Part shown: positions 13,109-62,098 of the stretch, one piece after another
Position numbering within the stretch: the stretch's first letter is position 1
Layout of the letters: each line of letters starts with the position of its first letter
Assembly (NCBI GenBank): GCA_964016885.1
Contig: OZ024740.1
Span: 184,946,001 to 185,010,000 of the forward strand
Source: Eledone cirrhosa
Taxonomy: Eukaryota
DNA: 64,000 bases
Reading direction: 5' to 3'
Program-made: the position numbers and the translations under genes
Notes under the pieces: model-generated
What the model saw: the letters and a program-made list of their open reading frames with translations, nothing else
What the model was told of the DNA's origin: nothing
Database searches by the model: none

Positions 13109-14085
13109 GAAGTTTCCCTCAAAGTTACAAATTTGGGGGTTTGATCCTATTATTTGACATCTTGATCATATTTGATATAGCCTCATGGTAATTGAAGCCT
13201 TGTGAGTGAAATTAGGTAGATAGTAAACATAAAGATGATGTACCTATAATTTAAAGGGCCAGTCTCTCAGATTTATATTAAGGCTGTAAGAGTTGAGAAT
13301 TACTCATCCTCTCACATATTAATTTAACAAGCAGGCTATTTGATTGAACTAACGGTTGGAAAAGTTATTGTTGAAAGTAAAGGAGCTTCATTTCTTAAAT
13401 ATCACTACTTTACTGTTATTTCAAATCTCATGCTAAAAGCAGCATTCTTCAGAGAGATATGTATAGGGCGAGTGAGAGGGATCAGAAGGTGGTATCCAAT
13501 AGAGATAGTGTGTAGATGTGTGGGTATGTGTGTAAGAAATAAGGAGAAAATGACTAAAAAACAAAATTCTGCATACATTATGTATGTGTGTATGTATGCA
13601 CATATGTACGTACATATATATGTACGTATTTATGTACATGCCTATGTTTGTATTAGTTTCCCTTTTGCATATTGTCAGAAAATTAGTTTCCTCATTCGAA
13701 TCTGAGTGAAACATTTCTACATTTATAGATTCACTAATTCCTGCTGAAATTTACGATGAATATACTTTCATAGAATAACGTTAAAAGGAAAGACTGATTT
13801 CCCTGTAGATGCTTATTTCTACTCACACATAAACACACACACATTTATATTTATTAATTATAGATATATGATATGTATTTGTATGAATATATATATATAT
13901 GCATATATATATGTATGTATGTAATATGCATGTATGATATGTGTATGATATATACATATGATATGTATCCTCATCACCGATTATCGTCTATCTTCCACGC
14001 TAGCATGGGTTAAACGATATATATGTATATGTATGCATATATATATATATATATATGATATATATGATATATATATATATATATA

Positions 14086-14123
<38 letters not shown>

Positions 14124-14217
14124 AGGCACATGGCTTAGTGGTTAGAGCATTGTTTTTTTGGGGGGGTGGTGTTTTGATAGAGATGCCTACTGACTATAGT
14201 AGGTTTTTACTTTGTAT

Positions 14218-15453
14218 TTAGGTAAGGCGGGTCTTCTCTATTACTGAGTACCGCCAAAGGTCTCGGTCCAGTGACATTGTCTTGGAGAGGTGTAAGTGTG
14301 TGAGGTCGGAGTTTATCAGCTCGTCCCAGGTTTTTCTGGGTCTGCCTACTCCGTGGCTACCGTCTATCTTTATTGCCCTGCACTTTGATATACAGCTGTC
14401 GTCTTTCATGCGCATCACGTGACCGTACCAACGTAGCCTTCTCTCGAGTAAACAACATCTGATCCCTCTTATTTCTAATTTTTTCCTTAGTTCGTTTATG
14501 CTTTGCTGTTCACGTATATTACTATTGCACATCCAGCGGAGCATGCAAGCTTCGTTCCTCTCTAGTCTGCGTATATCCTCTGCACACAATGCCCAGGTCT
14601 CACTGCCATGCAGCATTGCTGTTCGTATGCAGGCATCGTATAACCTGCCTTTCATTTTTAGGGAGAACCCTCTAGCGTCTAATAGTGGTATAAGCTCTCT
14701 GAACTTTTTCCATCCAGTTCTAACTCTAGCTACTGTACTTTCAGAGCACCCTCCCCCACTGCTGATTTTGTCACCCAGGTAACGGAAGCTGTCCACTATT
14801 TCTATAGAACCCTCTGCGCAGTTGAAGGAGCTAGTATTTTGTGGGCACTTGCTGCTACTTATTGCACCAGAGCACCGGCCACATGTAAAATCTATGTTCT
14901 TAGTTAGCTTACCTGTGATCCCACTACATCTTTTATGCACCCATACTTTGCATTTGGGACATAAAATGGAGTTTCTACCTACGCCTTTCCTACACACTGA
15001 GCATGGCCATTTCCCAGATGGGACTGCCGCCTTATTTTCTTTCCTACAAACTAGAACTTTAGTCTTAGCCAGGTTAATTTTAAGGCCTTTTGATTCTAGG
15101 CCGTGCTTCCATGTTTGGAATTTCTTCTCTAGTTCGGTTATTGATTCAGCTATGAGCGTTAGATCATCTGCGTATAGGAGTTCCCATGGGCAGCCGGTCT
15201 TGAACTCCTCTGTTATAGCCTGAAGGGCAATAATAAATAGTAGGGGGCTAAGAACAGAGCCCTGATGGACACCAACTTTTACGCTAAACTCTTCACTATA
15301 TTCGTTGTTAATTCTAACCTTACTGACTGTTTCTTTATACATGGCTTGTATAGCTCTCACAAGCCATTCGTCAACACCTAGTTTTCTAAGAGACCACCAG
15401 ATAATGGAACGGGGGACTCTGTCGAAGGCTTTCTCCAAGTCGACGAAAGCTAA

Positions 15454-15456
<3 letters not shown>
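14218..15456 (-). mobile_element. 5'-truncated RTE-group LINE ORF2 (RT, thumb, C-terminus) with an in-frame PHD-type zinc finger; open frame
   Basis: Motifs LAFVDLEKAFDRVP, GVHQGSVLSPLLF, LLYADD, FRYLG, LHGSETW, RRLRWYGHVMRM, GRPRKTW. Homology starts at 15456 directly against (TA)n. The N-terminal ~50 aa of the listed ORF come from microsatellite and Helitron sequence. Confidence 0.93.
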
Positions 15457-15477
<21 letters not shown>

Positions 15478-15488
<11 letters not shown>

Positions 15489-16374
15489 TGAGATGCCTGT
15501 CTGTGTGTGTGTGAGTTTGAATCTCTAAAACTCGAGAACCACCCAACCGACTGTTTTTAAAATTTATGCATGTATTACTTATGTTTCTGAGCAAAACAAA
15601 TTTCAAATTTTCAATGCCTTAGGGACCGCATTTGACGATTTAGCGATCTCTCTCTATAATTCTTAGTCTTTCTCTTTTTAGATAGATACATACATATAAC
15701 GTGGCACCCTTAAAATATTTGTCTGTATGTCTGGCTGTCTGCATTACGTCACTTCCCTGAGGATGTCTGTCTGTGTGTTTGAATCCCTAAAACTCGAGAA
15801 GTACCCAACCGAATTTTTTCAAACTTTACATGTGTAATACTTATGTTTCAGGGAGTGATATGCACATAAAATTCAATATTTTGTCTCCTAGGGCCCGCAT
15901 TAGGTGAAAAACTGCGTTTTTTTTTAGCTTTTTAAGGTTTTTTTTTAGGCGTTACGTCAGACCGATTTCCTTGAAATTATAACTATGTATTAGTCAGTCT
16001 CTTGTTCATACTGTGAGCAAAGAAAATCCAACTTTTTTATGGCCTAGGGCCCGCATTAGGTGAAAAACTTAATTTTTTCAGCTTTTTATGGCTTTTTGGA
16101 GGCGTTATGCCTAGCCGATTTTCCCGAAATTTCAAAGCATATTATGCACATAAAAAAAAAATTCATTTTCTTGATCCCCTAGGGCCTGCATTACCTGAAA
16201 ACTTGCATTTTTCCTGCTTCATCGAGGAAAATCTTAAAGATTATCCAGCCATCAGATTATTCAGTTTATTTTCTTTACATATTGTCCAGGCATGCAGTTT
16301 TTCCACGATTAGGTCTGTTGGCGGCCCGCATTCCAAAATACCTTATCCCGTGCAACACCGGGTACCACTGCTAG
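15478..16374 (+). mobile_element. Non-autonomous Helitron
   Basis: 3' end has hairpin CCCGTGCAACACCGGG (16347-16362), then CTAG (16371-16374) followed by T. The 5' end merges with (TA)n. Internal repeats: AAAACTCGAGAA..CCCAACCGA x2 and CCTAGGGCCCGCATTA x3. Confidence 0.75.
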
Positions 16375-16398
16375 TGATATATATTTATGTGTTATGTG

Positions 16399-16436
<38 letters not shown>

Positions 16437-20581: not shown

Positions 20582-21050
20582 CTTTCAAAATGATATGATG
20601 TCAAAGAACCAGTCATGAAGAACAAATCCTTTTTACTGAACTAATTAAAATATTTGGTCATCTGTAAGCTTCTTGTATTGATTAAATATCCCATATATTT
20701 CAATACACTGTTAAGATTATTTAAGAATAACCTCTTTTTATCTTCAGTAGAAATCCTCTTGAAATACTTTAGTTGCATTTTTCAGCAAAGATTTTCTGAG
20801 GATAATATCTGAATAAATTTAAGAAAGTGGAAAAGGGCGCATGGGTCCATTTAGGTATGTGGTGATGAATCGAGTGATGTATGCAGAAAATTCTACATTA
20901 ATTGAAATTTGACTCATATTTGGAGACAGAAACACAAATATAACAGCAACATTTTATTAATAAAATATTGTCAATATAATTTACTTAATGAATATATATT
21001 CATTATATCAATTATATGAGACTAAGCATAAGAGGTCTCAAATGTTGTGT

Positions 21051-21622
21051 TCTAGAGAGGAGATTGTGTTCGTATGGATATGTGATGCATATGAAGGACG
21101 ACAGCTGTATCAAAGAGTGCAGCGCAATGAAAATTGATGGAAGCTACGGAGTGGGTAGAGCAAGGAAAGCCTAGGACGAGGTGATAAAAACTGACCTTGC
21201 TCACCTACATACACCTCTCTAAGACAATGAAACTAGATCGAGACCTTTGGCACCATGCAAATGTACAGAAGACCCAACTGCCATTGCATACAAATCTACA
21301 GTCAGTAGGCCCCTCTTAACACAATTTACACCCCACCCTCACACCATACCCCATCCTCCCTCCCCCATTCTGTCCGTTGTGTTGATGACACAACAGTTCA
21401 CACTATAAGGTGGTTGTGTAGGAGACACAGTAAAAAGGCTCCCAGTCCACACTATAATTGTGGTTGGTGTTAGGAAGGGCATCCAACGGTAAAAAAACCT
21501 GCCAGAGATGCTTCTGTGCAAGCGAGACATGGTCTCCCGACCATTCCTGCATCAAATGGAACAAAACCGTCTAACCCATGCTAGCCCGGAAGATGGACGT
21601 TAAACGATGATGATGATGATGA
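21051..21622 (+). mobile_element. 3' end (ORF2 C-terminus, 3' UTR, (ATG)n tail) of the PHD-RT LINE family, degenerate
   Basis: LERRLCSYGYVMHMKDDSCIKECSAMKIDGSYGVGRARK matches the C-terminus of the 14218 ORF. Ends CCCATGCTAGCCCGGAAGATGGACGTTAAACGATGATG. Confidence 0.85.
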
Positions 21623-30325: not shown

Positions 30326-30328
<3 letters not shown>

Positions 30329-30675
30329 AGGCACATGGCTTAGTGGTTAGAGCATTGGCTTTGCAATCGAAAGGTTGTGACTTCAATTATCAGACCGGGT
30401 GATGTGTTGTTTCCTTGAGCAAGACACTTTATTTCACATTGCTCCAGTTTACTCAGCTGTAGAAATGAGATGATAGGGACTGGAGTCCATATCACATAAC
30501 CACTGCAAAGTGGTTGTGGGGGTGCCACAACAAAAAAGCACCCAGCACTCACTGTAAATGAGGTTGGTGTTAGGAAGGGCATCCAGCTGTAGAAATCAAG
30601 GCAGCATCAGTTCCCGTCCCACCCTTGCAAGCAGGGAAAAAGCGGACGTAAAATGAAATGATGATGATGATGATG
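30326..30675 (+). mobile_element. Full-length tRNA-head CORE SINE inserted in (TA)n
   Basis: A-box TGGCTTAGTGG, degenerate B-box GACTTCAATT, CORE-like CCTTGAGCAAGACACTTTATTTCACATTGCTCCAGTTTACTCAGCTGTAGAAATGAG, (ATG)n tail. Confidence 0.88.
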
Positions 30676-30759: not shown

Positions 30760-31452
<693 letters not shown>

Positions 31453-37286: not shown

Positions 37287-38925
37287 TCTATCTATCTATC
37301 TATCTAAGGCGGGTAAAATTCCCGAGATCCATGGACGAGTTCTCTCCAGCGGTCTCTGTCCCTCATTATCGCTGCCATATCCTGCATCTCCAACAGACCA
37401 GTGTCTGTCCTTAGGGCATCAACATATGTTAACCTTGGTCTTCCTCTTCTAGTGTGTCCATGTAGGGGCTCCCAAAGGAGCACTGAGTGCAATGTCAACT
37501 CTGGATGTCGGTGAGCATGTCCAGCCAACCTCAGTCTCCTCTGTGTCACTTTTGAGCTGACTTTTGGGATGCTCCCATACAGCTCTGAGTTTTTCATCCT
37601 CAGTGTATACTGATTAATGTTCAGAGCCATCCTCAGCATTCTCGTGTAGCACCCATCCACCATCTGAGTGAGTCTCTTGGTCAGTGTCCAAGTCTCAGAC
37701 CCATACAGCAGCACAGACTCTACTACAGCAATGAAGAGGCTGATTTTCAGGTCTCTACGAAGGTCCGACTTCCACACCGATCTCAAGCTGTGACACACCG
37801 CCCAGGCCTTGCTCTTCCTCCCAACCACATCATCTTCCGTATTCCCAATCTTTGCTCCCAAATACAGGAAGTCCTCAACCAATTCCAGCGGCTTCCCGCC
37901 TACATTAGTGATCCCCTCTGGCTTCTCAACATTCTCCACCAGATATTTTGTTTTAGTCTCATTCATTCTCAGCCCCACACTCATCGACACAGTCTCAACC
38001 TCCCGCATCAAATCCTCTGCCTCCTTCACTGTATTTGTCACCAAAACTATGTCGTCGGCAAATTCAGCATCCGATACCTTTTTCGCCCCAACTCTCCTGC
38101 TCTGAGCCGGTGCTACAGTAAAGCCAGTGTCCTGGTATTTCTCCAGTGCAAGGCGCATACAATAGTCCACTACGATGATAAAAAGGTAGGGAGCCAATGT
38201 ATCTCCCTGGAGCACTCCAGCCAGTATCTCAAAGAACTCTGTCATCCCATCAGGTGTAATGACTTGGGCTTTGGTGTTGGTGTAGAGCAGTGATATCAGG
38301 TCCACTATCCTCTTGGGGATTCCATAAGCCTGTAAGATCTTCATCAGGCAGTAACGGTCCACAGAATCAAAGGCCTTCCTAAAGTCAATGAAAACCATGA
38401 CCGCAGGAAGGCACTTTGCTCTAGCTCCCTCTAATATCCTCCTCAGCATCAGGATGTGACTGGTGGTTGATCTACCCTCTCTGAAACCGTTCTGGTTGTC
38501 CCTGAGCTTCTTCTCCATCTCAGGCTGGATCCTGTTAAGAATCATCCTGTTGAGGGTCTTTGCCACAAGTGACGTCAGTGAGATCCCCCGGTAGTTGTTG
38601 GTGTTAGAGAGATCTCCCTTCTTTGGCACTGGGACGATGTTACTGATCCTCCACTGATTCGGGGCAACTCCTTTCTCCAGTGCCCCGTTACAGAACCCCA
38701 GGATGATATCATCAAAATCACACCTCTTCATCACCTCTGATGCCACTCCATCCTCTCCATGAGCCTTGCCCTCCTTGATCTTCTTCTTGGCCCTCTGAAG
38801 CTCCTCTCTGGTGAAGGGCTCTGTCTCAACATCCAGTTCCTCAAACAGCCGCCTGATCTCCCCACTGCTCTGGGCTGTGGAGGGTGGCTCTCCTAGTAGG
38901 GTCCTAAAATGGTCTAGCCATTTAG
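37287..38925 (-). mobile_element. Young 5'-truncated RTE-group LINE (RT ORF open from ~38870 to 37304), (TAGA)n tail, 11-bp TSD
   Basis: Motifs [93 protein letters not shown] at 37276-37286 and 38926-38936. One frameshift near 38870 (WLDHFRTLLGEPP is in another frame). Confidence 0.95.
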
Positions 38926-40439
38926 AGGAGAGAATAAGTGACGATTAAAAACTCTTTTTGTGGCTTCTATGTGTGTTGGGCAAACAGAAGGAAATTATTC
39001 TCAGACTGGAAACCAGATCCAAATGTTTGCAACAACTGTAGTCTGTAATCTACTAAATACATCCAAGGGTTTGTGAGGGTTTTTAAATCCCTTTTGTATG
39101 CATTAAGTCTACCAAACAAGATGTATATATATTGTCTAATATCATAAATAGACTTGTTGTGGAATTAGAATTATGACAATTGTAAGAAATTCTAAACTAT
39201 GGCCACTTTGATACTTGTGCTGCTATGAACTAGAGGATTATCCTCAAAATTTACTTTTCGACATGACTATGAATTGAATTTATACACTTATTATAGAATG
39301 TTGAGGGGGAAGAGTTTCAAATGAAAATACACAATTGTAAGTCCATTCGATGAAAAAGATAAATTAAAGAGAATAGAATTAAGAACAACACAAATTCTCT
39401 ATAGATTGGAATTCTTATTTACCAATTCAACACTGCAAACATAGGAGGTAATAAAAGAGCCTAACATGGTAATTTGCCTTGTTAAAAATAGGTGTTAAAT
39501 CCCCTTAAATCACAAAATCATATGTCAATGCCTTAAAAAATAAAGATGTGTATAAGTGAGGGATATGCGCACCATTTCTCTTAGAAACAAAGTCTCTTGA
39601 GATAAATTAGGTTGCAGGCCCTCCCCTGCCATCAGAAATACAGTGATGCTATGATAGGTTAAATAGAAACCTATAACTAAATTAGTGCTAAAAATAAATA
39701 AATAAGTATATAAATAAATCAGTGGCAAACGAAATGTTCAAAATATATACAGCAGCAGAAGTGGATATTTTAAGGTGATAGCAGAAAAGTCAGTGTAAAG
39801 GATGATGATCATGGTGGTGATGGTGATTCATGGGACGATGAAAATGTTAATAGTGATAGTGGTGATGATCATGGTGATGATGGTATTGGGTGATAATGAA
39901 GGGGTCTGTGTGTATGTCAAGGGAGGAGCTGAGGGCTGTCTGCACATAAGTTACATACTGATTTACTGTATGATCAATGTCATTTGTCTGTAAGTAGGTG
40001 AATGTGTGTGCATTTCTGTATGGAATATAAAAGATAACAAACAGTGCCGACGGTATATAATTTTGATGTATAACTTGTGTATCAGGATATTAAGTGTCAG
40101 ATACAGAAAGTGACACTTCACAGTCTCTCACCTCTTACTCCTTAATAAATCTATTATAAATATAGTGGAGATTGGTGTATTTGAGACTTAGTCTTAATAT
40201 AGTTATCACATTAGGGTTTCTAATAATGATTTCTTTATTATTGCCACTAGCATGACCACATGGGGTTTTAATAATGATGAGATAATTCGATGTGAAATTT
40301 ACCATGTGCTCAAAGATTTATCATGTGATTTATATATTGATAATTCATTTTTCTTTGCAATTTTGAAAGGAACCATAATGCTTCAGCAACACTGTTATAT
40401 TTGTGTGTTTTGTATTATTCTTTTTATTATTATTATTAT

Positions 40440-46645: not shown

Positions 46646-47117
46646 TTCATCATCATCATCACCATTTTATGTCCAATCTTCCACGTTAGCATGGGTTAGA
46701 CGGGTTGTCCTGTTGTGGGCAATGCCAGGTCAAGTGACCATGTCTTGCTCATACAGAACTGATTTTGGCTCCTCCTTACACTAACCTCATTTACAGTGAG
46801 TACTGGGTGCTTTTTTACCATGGTGCCTACACGACCACTTTACAGTGTGAGCTGGGTGCTTTTTTGTCGTGACACCTACACAACCACTTTACAGTGTGGG
46901 GGGGGGGGGCATATTGTCTATATGCTTCAGCTTGTACCCGTGGGAAGTCGGGTCTTCTGTATTATTGTGTAATGCCAGATGTCTCGGTCCTGTGTCATCA
47001 CCTTTAAGAGGTGCAATTGGGCAAGGTCAGCTGTTATCACCTCATCCCAGGTCTTCTTGGGTTCTCCCCACTCCAAGGCTTCCATCGACTTTTAGTGCTC
47101 TGCAACTTTTTATCCAG
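46646..47117 (-). mobile_element. 3' end of the PHD-RT LINE family with 3' UTR and (ATG)n tail
   Basis: Reverse complement translates WIKSCRALKVDGSLGVGR../KKTWDEVITADLAQLHLLKVMTQDRDIWHYTIIQKTRL, matching the end of the 14218 ORF. Confidence 0.82.
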
Positions 47118-47260
47118 GAGAATATCCAGGATGTGACTGCTAAAAAGAAAGAGCTGCACCAGCACATGGATGATACATTTTTTCATCAATTCTAATAAGA
47201 TGAAAGGCAAAGAAGATCTTAGCAGGATTTGAACACAGAACACGAAGAGCATGAACAAAT

Positions 47261-51363: not shown

Positions 51364-52080
51364 ATCATCATCATCATCGTCAATTTTACATCTGCTTTTC
51401 CATGCTTGCATGGGTTGGATGTGTTACTTCATCATCTCTTCTGTGAGTTTCAGTGATTTGATTCAGCTCTCACTACCTCTACTGCAGCTTCTTTCCACTG
51501 GAACTTCTTCTCCCAGTTATCATCATCCATGTGCATCACATGTTCATACCAATGATATCTTCTCTTCTGCACATAGCCTCAAATTCCTCTTCAACCCAGC
51601 TTCTCCCTCAACTCGTCCAAGCTCTGCCTTTCTCTCACATTTACATTGCACATCTAACAAAGCATGGCTGCTTCATTTCTCTCCAGTCTACACATGTCTT
51701 CTGCAGCCACAGCCCATGTTTCACTACCGTGCAGCATTGCATTTTGCACTCAAGCATCATAAAGTCATCCTTTTGTATGTAGGGAGAAACCTTTTTTAGT
51801 CAACAGTGGGAGTAGTTCTTTACAGATTTTCCATCCTATCCTTATTCTAGCTATTATGCACTCAGCACATTCCTCCACTAATAATTAAGTCACCTAGGTA
51901 GAAGCTCTTCACCACTTCTATAGACCTTTCTTGTGACTGGAAAAGGTTTATTATATCACTGATGCTTTTCCCCTCAATTACCCATGTGCACCTTCTAAAT
52001 ACGTCTTCCTTTCCCATTAGTTGACCGATTATCCCACTCCATCTCTTGTGTAACCCAAGAATTACATTGTGTACATCGTA
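51364..52080 (-). pseudogene. Degenerate copy of the PHD-RT LINE family
   Basis: Reverse complement gives LHKRWSGIIGQL (PHD remnant)...SIEVVKSFYLGDLIISGG...ARIRIGWK..ELLPLL..KGFSL...AMLHGSETWAV. (CAT)n tail at 51364. Confidence 0.8.
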
Positions 52081-52435
52081 TGTACATCCTTTTCTTAAGG
52101 TATGTGAATGGATTTGTATCTCTCTGTCTGAAACTGACACTACTTTAAACACATGCTATATTTTGTTTATGTCATACAACCGGAAATTTCAATAATTAGA
52201 TATCATTTAAAAATGAGTACTAGGTTAGATATGTATGTAAATTTTTAGTATGAGTGCAGTCCAATCACTGGAAGCAGTAAAATAATAAGATCGTTTTTTT
52301 TTAAGAGTAAAAGAAGAAGGATCAAAATAATTTTCATATGCTTTCCTGCCTTATATGAAAAATGAATGGATAAAACAAACAAACCTATTATCCAGAGAAA
52401 AATAGATATATCAATCACTATTGTGAGAGTAAGGG

Positions 52436-54948: not shown

Positions 54949-55660
54949 GTATGGTGAACGAACTGTTGTCTAACCACTTCTAACTAACTCGTCCCATGGA
55001 CTGAGTGCTCTACCACTACAGATATTACCTTCCAGTGTTCTACCACTATATATATATATATATATAATGTTCCTTTACATATACTTACAGATGCAATTAT
55101 AAATAAATAAAACAAGACAAGACAAAACGAAAAGAAACATATATAGGTACACATATGCATAGGTACTAAACATGAAAGAAAGAATTAGGGATAAATATAA
55201 TCTATGTATTAGTTATACTTTTATACATTTTTTTCCACCTACTTTGAAAAGCAATGTTTAGAATATCCTTGATGATCAAGGAGAAAGATATCTTGGTAAT
55301 CTTGGTAAGTAAAAGAGCAAGATATTCCCAAAGAGAAAAAATAAAAATAAAATGATATTCACTGCAGAAATCTCCAGACGCAGTTTACGGTAATTGTTCA
55401 GTAAATTTAATATATTAATATCAGAGATGAAGAAAAATCAAGAATATTTTTCCGAAACTAGCCATTAAGTTACCATTGAATTCTTTATTTTATTTTTGTT
55501 CTTGTTGTTGTGGTTTGCTTTTTCATTCATTCTTTATTTCTTTACTTATTTATTCCAATTACCACTATTTTCGTTAGAATTGACTTGATGTAATTTTTTT
55601 CTATATAGTAGTTTTCTTTTTAATATATATATGGATATATATATATATATGCACACAGAT

Positions 55661-55693
<33 letters not shown>

Positions 55694-55727
55694 CACACAT
55701 ATATATATATAAACAAATTCAAAAACG

Positions 55728-59952
<4,225 letters not shown>

Positions 59953-60548
59953 AGCTGGTGCTACTGGTAACATGTATCCCAGTACAACCAGTCCCATGGT
60001 CGGGTCGTTGGCGACTACACTGGCAACCCCACCAAGGTTTCTTGGTGAGGAGGGTGACTCTGGACATCCTGCAGGACTAAAAACAAAACCTGTCAAAAGG
60101 CAAAGGGTCTCTTAAGAGTCAATAGCTATCCAAAATCACCAGGAGAGATGACCCCTTAGCCTTTGTCAAGACAGAATTCTAGGAGAAGGAAAACTCTGAT
60201 ATAACACCTGCAACCCTGATGGTATCCAATGATGTTGACTTGTTCTTCTTTTTGGTAAATATCATCGTGGTTAAGAGAGTGGGACTGGCTTTGTGCAGTG
60301 CCTTTGCTCACTATAAAAGCTTCACGGCACAGGCATTGCTTTATATCTGGAGATCTCTGCACTTGTCGTCACATGGTAGCATGGGCCCATCACTATGTGT
60401 CAATAATTGTAACAGGTGTAGTGTTTGGACCAGAGTTTTTAAGTCGCTGGCTGGACTAAAATGTCACACTCGTTCAGCGCATTGGTAGGGGTTCTCCTAC
60501 ATGGATATAAAGTAGTGGCCGTACTCGAAAACGAGTTGGCAGCCACCA
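59953..60548 (+). mobile_element. Internally deleted (bipartite) non-autonomous RTE/BovB-like element in (TA)n
   Basis: Hairpin-rich 5' part with the RTE 5'-UTR-type motif CTAGGAGAAGGAAAACTCTGA. The 3' part encodes a C2H2-like remnant [22 protein letters not shown]. Short 3' stem CTCG-AAAA-CGAG. Confidence 0.65.
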
Positions 60549-61730: not shown

Positions 61731-62098
61731 GATGGTGGATGGGTGCTACACGAGAATGCTGAGGATGGCTCTGAACATTAATCAGTATACACTGAGGATG
61801 AAAAACTCAGAGCTGTATGGGAGCATCCCAAGAGTCAGCTCAACTGTGACACAGAGGAGACTGAGGTTGGCTGGACATGCTCATCGACATCCAGAGTTGA
61901 CATTGCACTCAGTGCTCCTTTGGGAGCCCCTACATGGACACACTAGAAGAGGAAGACCAAGGTTAACATATGTTGATGCCCTAAGGACAGACACTGGTCT
62001 GTTGGAGATGCAGGATATGGCAGCGATAATGAGGGACAGAGACCGCTGGAGAGAACTCGTCCATGGATCTCGGGAATTTTACCCGCCTTAGATAGATA
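61731..62098 (+). mobile_element. 5'-truncated copy of the (TAGA)n-tailed RTE
   Basis: [19 protein letters not shown]...HGSREFYPP*, near-identical to the end of the 37304 ORF; TAGATAGATA tail. Confidence 0.92.

Follow-up and report, generated by a model that had tools for sequence, protein, structure and literature searches.

The stretch of DNA analysed here (the window, 64 kb) is AT-rich, microsatellite-rich animal DNA with repeats that look cephalopod-like, and on its minus strand it carries the 3′ part of a LINE open reading frame (ORF) whose reverse transcriptase (RT) contains an inserted PHD finger (Table 1). Pfam RVT_1 covers residues 2–135 of the 411-residue protein, and the PHD follows at residues 151–194. 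The 5′ part of the element is missing and a (TA)n run stands in its place: base 15453 is where alignments of full-length relatives begin (with residue 686 or 651 of the relative), and an upstream LINE piece, either endonuclease or N-terminal RT, was found nowhere in the window. Because these parts are absent, the window copy cannot be active alone. At motif 7, FCYLG is present in 116 of 121 aligned proteins and the window copy reads FRYLG; its arginine is encoded at 14782–14784 (minus strand), at a position where the cysteine is a family trait adjoining the insert.

Table 1. Features of the PHD-bearing LINE and of related elements in the window.
Feature	Position	Strand	Remarks
RTE-type LINE ORF, 3′ part, 411 codons open	14221..15453	-	RT onward from FVDLEKAFD motif, PHD insert, motif 7, thumb, C-terminal region
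Stop codon of the PHD-bearing LINE ORF	14218-14220	-	
YADD catalytic motif, intact	15163..15174	-	
RT motif 6 (GLKINLAKTK)	15058..15087	-	
N-terminal tether of PHD finger	15016..15048	-	sequence variable, length near-fixed
C4HC3 PHD finger with aromatic-Pro cap	14872..15009	-	
Cage positions W149, V158, S162, W171	within 14872..15009	-	
Basic residues K148, K156, K174, R175, K182, R193	within 14872..15009	-	
W171, putative counterpart of Pygo1 cage tryptophan W366	14941..14943	-	alignment to Pygo2 and PMC2726290
C-terminal tether of PHD finger	14830..14871	-	variable
RT motif 7 (FRYLG)	14773..14787	-	
Short 3′ UTR and C-rich tail of the PHD-bearing LINE	14153..14217	-	
Decayed, 5′-truncated sister-family element	51365..52086	-	second half of PHD, (GAT)n tail
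Short 3′ fragment of related element	21007..21280	+	PHD region gone
Short 3′ fragment of related element	46930..47119	-	PHD region gone

A sequence-only reading of this DNA had claimed a complete C4HC3 finger with the spacing x2-x10-x2-x4-x2-x14-x2, and this is exactly what the translation contains, the zinc ligands being C151 (15001–15003), C154, C165, C168, H173, C176, C191, and C194 (14872–14874) on the minus strand. The Pfam comparison that it had proposed agrees, with PF00628 (PHD) matching residues 151–194 over profile positions 1–47 of 47 at 34 bits for a 64-aa piece and 26.6 bits for the whole protein (cut-off, 24 bits). An aromatic residue two positions before the last cysteine pair is described as a PHD signature (PMC9640981); here it is F189, and F or Y occupies this position in all 121 aligned proteins. 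No other C4HC3 pattern occurs when the window is translated in all six frames. C1-domain and RING readings of the segment were rejected, their Pfam scores lying under the cut-off and covering only part of the segment. The placement of the finger was likewise described correctly: it is inserted in the RT between GLKINLAKTK and FRYLG, with 90 residues after KTK, and the linker of another RT-bearing ORF in the window (the 37304 ORF), put earlier at about 25 aa, measures 25 residues after KTK. As a comparator the 37304 ORF is remote, with an end branch of 2.41 and no more than 35% identity to any tree row, so that closer PHD-less sisters make the proper comparison.

In an AlphaFold model of the whole protein, the finger has pLDDT values of 84–95 and comprises a beta-hairpin (162–164/171–173) and a helix (174–177), with values of 76–78 for the N-terminal tether and 62 for the C-terminal tether. 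Similar values were obtained for the finger (86–94) in the model of P0122, a full-length relative of 1,102 aa encoded by a single ORF. The modelled RT part matches L1 ORF2p (Z 13.2, rmsd 3.8, 328 aligned) and R2 (Z 12.9, rmsd 4.4, 299 aligned). Among the matches listed in whole-protein fold searches, only RTs, endonucleases, and polymerases were present, as is to be expected where large domains take up such a list. In these models, a check that had been suggested from the sequence, the finger folds with high predicted confidence as what appears to be an independent unit on two flexible linkers, and the predicted RT fold is undisturbed.

The initial proposal had made its case depend on conservation of the Cys and His residues across family copies, and these proved near-invariant: seven ligands are kept in 121 of 121 aligned proteins and the eighth in 120. 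Several non-ligand residues are conserved to a similar degree among the same proteins, including P150 (121), W171 (120), N161 (120), V158 (116), and S or A at position 162 (119), and W171 is also kept in 120 of 120 long proteins. In its mean top-residue frequency among these 120 long proteins (0.67), the finger is close to the RT, whose core and thumb reach 0.73 and 0.66, respectively; the two linkers have values of 0.32–0.34. The tethers reach 0.37 (N-terminal) and 0.38 (C-terminal) among the 121 aligned proteins, and the offset from YADD to the first Cys is 57 residues in 220 of 241 proteins. Both the ligands and the cage positions discussed below are near-invariant across proteins that are only ~50% identical.

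The finger had been regarded as a family trait, and it is in fact a lineage trait that extends far beyond the source genome. A protein search gave 2,819 matches, and 118 of the 120 listed fit the C4HC3 pattern, the two misses being a one-residue deletion in one protein and a Cys-to-Ser change in the other; among the 813 longer matches, all 120 listed fit it. In many of these longer matches a single ORF of ~1,040–1,120 residues combines endonuclease, RT, and PHD; some relatives match PF27108 (PHD_Pygo). The host range rests on five named animal matches, in Hydractinia symbiolongicarpus (a cnidarian, three matches) and Branchiostoma belcheri (a lancelet, two matches), and on a few Atlas taxa, the nearest Atlas clusters being eukaryotic RVT_1 plus PHD clusters with few taxa recorded. 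Two protein matches labelled as bacterial MAG probably reflect host contamination. When the Atlas was searched for a donor with the finger as the sole query, all matches were short PHD clusters without names.

Since the homologue lists were ranked with a finger-containing query, two less circular tests were run. An RT-only search of 1.84 billion representatives listed 150 matches, of which 27 carry the finger, 25 have a short linker, 63 end before the insert site, and 35 are frameshifted or unscorable. RT peptides recovered 79 metagenome loci; 49 of them span the insert site, comprising 45 with the finger, two short-linker sisters, and two decayed copies. When the PHD-less sister P0353 was used as query, 120 proteins were listed and none of the 113 scorable ones had a finger. 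The linker is 26–32 residues long in the 107 sisters measured among the P0353 matches listed, and in a profile alignment P0353 is collinear with the PHD family except for the insert.

An RT phylogeny had been proposed to delimit the clade, and in trees built with the insert columns removed the PHD-bearing RTs form one branch. FastTree analysis of 102 dereplicated rows placed all finger-bearing rows on one branch with a support of 98; P0257 carries a finger of variant spacing. For IQ-TREE (LG+G4, 453 columns), 52 rows were selected (28 of 61 with the finger and 24 of 41 without), and the long-branch 37304 protein was left out. The 28 PHD-bearing RTs make up one side of a branch at 100/100, and a larger group, also at 100/100, encloses these 28 rows together with 13 PHD-less rows. 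The chosen outgroup does not form one side of any IQ-TREE branch, so the root is approximate. The finger was probably gained once, in the ancestor of the clade, because L1, R2, and all the sisters are without it.

Sequencing data also bear on the locus. From run X1, 26,817 contigs were placed on the stretch 14000–15700, and summed contig depth, which is not copy number, is 1.0–1.9 million over the element and 1.2–1.4 million over the finger. Depth falls to zero in two bins below 14114, and loose contig ends lie at 14169. These depths show a high-copy family of which the finger, its own depth lying within the range of the element, is an integral part. At least one fifth of the sampled words of the element are present in 16 coded organisms from 15 studies (runs X1–X19, range 21–88%), a sharing compatible with related species, mixed samples, or horizontal transfer; none of the holders listed is an RNA data set. 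Run X5 contains a 317-base piece that spans most of the finger with five letters different, and runs X5 and X12 contain shallow, near-identical pieces of the element.

The element is an RTE-type LINE, a label that rests on architecture and RT motifs, the trees having no curated RTE reference. Relatives such as P0122 have a single long ORF (~1,050 aa) with an APE endonuclease and an RT, the 3′ UTR is short, and simple-repeat tails of (GTT)n, (GT)n, or (GAT)n occur in many of the 29 related loci listed; this architecture and the simple-repeat tail fit the definition of the RTE clade (PMC1291365). Other RTE-clade LINEs, including RTE-1 of C. elegans, SR3, RTE-BovB of RepeatMasker, and catfish and insect relatives, likewise encode both the APE endonuclease and the RT in one long ORF, have a short 3′ UTR ending in simple repeats, and are dispersed as 5′-truncated copies. 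Unlike them, the PHD clade has ~65 extra residues, with the PHD, between motifs 6 and 7, and the three closest copies within the window have C-rich rather than AT-rich tails. A GC-rich, self-complementary-looking motif is shared by the 3′ UTRs of the related loci L002, L005, L011, L013, L052, L055, L066, L070, L077, and others; it stands just after the ORF and before the (GTT)n or (GT)n tail and is a candidate recognition hairpin.

The decayed copy at ~52050, cited earlier as a second member of the family, keeps HKRWSG as described, with a C-x2-C pair just upstream in another frame. It is not a copy of the same family: with a DNA identity of ~67% (over 417 bases) to the PHD-bearing LINE and a tail that is (GAT)n instead of C-rich, it belongs to a sister family of the same clade.

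Among solved structures, the best single-stretch PHD match of the finger is Pygo2. In Pygo1 the cavity for K4me2 is formed by W366, Y341, D352, V350, and A356 (PMC2726290), and alignment to Pygo2 sets W149, V158, S162, and W171 on four of these five positions. Of 256 pattern-selected fingers, 237 keep all four (aromatic, Val, small, and Trp), as do 90 of the 98 that are left once those more than 60% alike are removed; by this alignment the best-kept non-ligand residues lie on the cage side. Methyl-K4 readers are described as cage-bearing PHDs and readers of unmodified H3 as lacking a cage (PMC10124903). The Pygo acids are largely absent: of the 256 fingers, 8 have an acid near the position of D352 and 5 have one at that of E360; mutation of E360 in Pygo1 is reported to have abolished H3K4me3 binding (PMC2726290). 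The finger is in addition basic: its net charge ranges from +1 to +12 (median +7), none of the 256 being at or below zero, and the net charge per residue is 0.155, compared with 0.035 elsewhere in the protein, the finger being the higher in 237 of 238 proteins. K or R occupies position 174 in 83% and position 175 in 93% of the 256 fingers. The binding site of H3 readers is typically mainly negative (PMC9640981; PMC10124903), and the basic PHD of VIN3 is reported to show no H3 binding and weak polyanion binding (PMC9640981).

With respect to the RT, the insert falls between motifs 6 and 7 (residue 134 of the query aligns to R2Bm residue 666), as does the 6a segment of R2, a correspondence of position for which no homology is claimed. 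The 6a segment of R2Bm (672–677) reads upstream target DNA and is required for nicking (PMC10499050), and that of vertebrate R2 also wedges into target DNA (PMC12180492). The equivalent loop of L1 is at about 745–760, and the available parts of the L1 structure papers PMC7617806 and PMC12503042 hold nothing on this loop touching target DNA. Because its position matches 6a, the finger occupies a slot that faces the target in one non-LTR element, and the same slot may face target DNA in an APE-type protein. R2 is an RLE-type element with site-specific insertion, and its 6a is a short loop by which it reads a particular rDNA sequence. The elements described here are dispersed and of the APE type, and their insert is a zinc finger of 44 residues on linkers, with a predicted DNA contact. 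The 6a-like position and the kept cage residues lend indirect support to a possible role of the finger at the integration target. Tight targeting of promoters or particular sites is not apparent: the 64-kb window holds four clade members, yet none of the 110 other ORFs tested (chosen among the 145 longest frames out of 211 that passed filtering) matches Pfam, and the 29 related loci listed have diverse 3′ flanks, a picture that later selection blurs.

From the aligned cage, the charge, and the position of the insert, our preferred reading, to which we give slightly less than an even chance, is that the finger may be a tether that keeps the enzyme on target chromatin through DNA and a methylated lysine, most likely H3K4. 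The finger would have been captured once in the clade ancestor and then exposed on flexible linkers to the target-DNA side, by analogy with R2 6a. Its basic surface would bind nucleosomal DNA, its conserved half-cage would bind a methylated lysine on the H3 tail, most likely H3K4, and this two-point grip would raise the rate of, or bias, target-primed reverse transcription; the PZP module of BRPF1 provides a precedent for two-point binding of H3 plus DNA (PMC10124903). More tentatively, and with considerable doubt, a single capture of a Pygo-like methyl-lysine reader at the 6a position might have founded an RTE clade, reaching from cnidarians to chordates, whose polymerase reads histone methylation during integration. 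Such an enzyme would be a non-LTR RT with a built-in histone reader, and the 6/7 loop would then have been put to use for target recognition a second time, independently.

The finger may instead bind nucleic acid only, either target DNA, as a bulky counterpart of 6a, or the 3′ UTR RNA of the element itself, with its aromatics stacking on bases. We hold this to be possible, if doubtful, and it ranks close behind the chromatin tether; nucleic-acid binding stays nearly as likely because the finger is basic and without the canonical H3-reader acids. The strong conserved positive charge, the missing Pygo-type acids, the position of the insert at that of a DNA-reading loop, and the precedent of VIN3 are all in line with it, and no C-terminal CCHC knuckle was found by pattern in the 120 longer proteins listed, so another nucleic-acid grip could help. 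PHD-less sisters are nevertheless widespread without a finger, and the aromatic residue at 149, V158, the small residue at 162, and W171 match a methyl-lysine cage by position, which base stacking would not obviously need. A less probable suggestion is that the finger is a protein–protein or structural module, contacting a non-histone host factor or another part of the protein of the element itself, with no direct part in site choice; against it stands the location, by alignment, of the best-kept non-ligand residues on the cage side. We consider such a module unlikely. The Pygo and MLL1 fingers are reported to bind non-histone partners through the aromatic residue before the last cysteine pair (PMC9640981), which is F or Y in all 256 fingers, and a near-fixed linker length fits docking on a defined surface; the linkers are, however, variable in sequence and modelled with lower confidence, as for a mobile tether.

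There is very little room left for the view that the insert is a functionless chance passenger that was merely tolerated, or an assembly artefact, a reading already largely refuted. The window copy is indeed truncated and inactive alone, and the insert occupies a surface loop whose length can vary, as R2 6a illustrates. Against a passenger stand the near-invariant ligands and cage in proteins ~50% identical and the presence of the finger in 45 of the 49 site-spanning loci, the rest being two sisters and two decayed copies; the artefact is countered by a depth over the finger in run X1 that does not leave the range of the remaining element.

PHD fingers in LINEs are known from CR1 and L2 elements, where they belong to ORF1 or, in single-ORF elements, to the N-terminus and where a targeting role has been proposed (PMC4120745). 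Those fingers are likewise encoded by a LINE, but one of the Jockey group, and they are not part of the RT, whereas the clade described here has its PHD inside the RT palm of an RTE-type protein; the structure of ORF2 has been called highly constrained (PMC4120745). What appears to be new is a conserved PHD inside an RTE-type RT. The literature searched consisted of titles and the starts of abstracts, with Repbase, Dfam, subscription journals, and supplements outside the search, and within it we found no description of a PHD inside an RTE RT; the available parts of PMC11203168, PMC9115989, PMC3849965, PMC9004415, PMC10294476, PMC13708176, and PMC12503042 contain no passage on one either. RTE-2_OV of octopus carries a C2H2 finger, not a PHD (PMC9115989). 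Many public proteins already bear the Pfam tags RVT_1 and PHD, and that some database already annotates this architecture is, in our judgement, a real possibility, though one appreciably below even.

The Pygopus PHD, a reader of H3K4me2, shares with the LINE finger the aromatic-Pro-Cys start and four of the five cage positions. The LINE finger differs in being without the D352 and E360 acids, in a loop two residues shorter, and in having no long loop-2 helix for BCL9, and over the 35–38 aligned residues a hand count gives +8 for the LINE finger versus −4 for Pygo2. Chromodomains of chromoviral integrases target integration. They and the RAG2 PHD, which prefers K4me3 (PMC2726290), likewise couple a chromatin reader to a recombination or integration enzyme. 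In those DDE enzymes the reader is a separate subunit or a terminal domain and its binding has been demonstrated, whereas the LINE finger is embedded in a polymerase and is a putative reader.

The finger bears on how dispersed LINEs engage chromatin: it sits in the one protein that carries out integration. A survey of 2014 was aware of no LINE PHD that had been studied functionally by then (PMC4120745). The intact full-length relatives and the close natural PHD-less controls allow a direct swap experiment. Together with R2 6a, the insert suggests that the loop between motifs 6 and 7 may be a slot that accepts target-binding modules and leaves the polymerase unharmed. This idea matters for RNA-only gene-insertion tools based on RTE and R2, such tools having already been built on proteins of both (PMC13708176).

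Other repeats surround the element. Its 3′ tail adjoins the first 32 bases of a SINE-like repeat (14121–14152), which are 100% identical to a copy at 30326–30620; the remainder of the repeat was not found across the LINE. At the truncated 5′ end, after the (TA)n run, lies a separate repeat (15455–16400) with internal duplicated units and a CTAGT end, which we take to be Helitron-like. The 37304 ORF (37304–38944, minus strand) is a 546-codon open frame of a second, distant RT-bearing LINE family, near-identical short copies of which, at 30973–31323 and 61834–62058, are embedded in (TA)-rich microsatellites. At ~55500–60000, a compound (TA/TG) microsatellite of more than 4 kb yields long spurious open frames.
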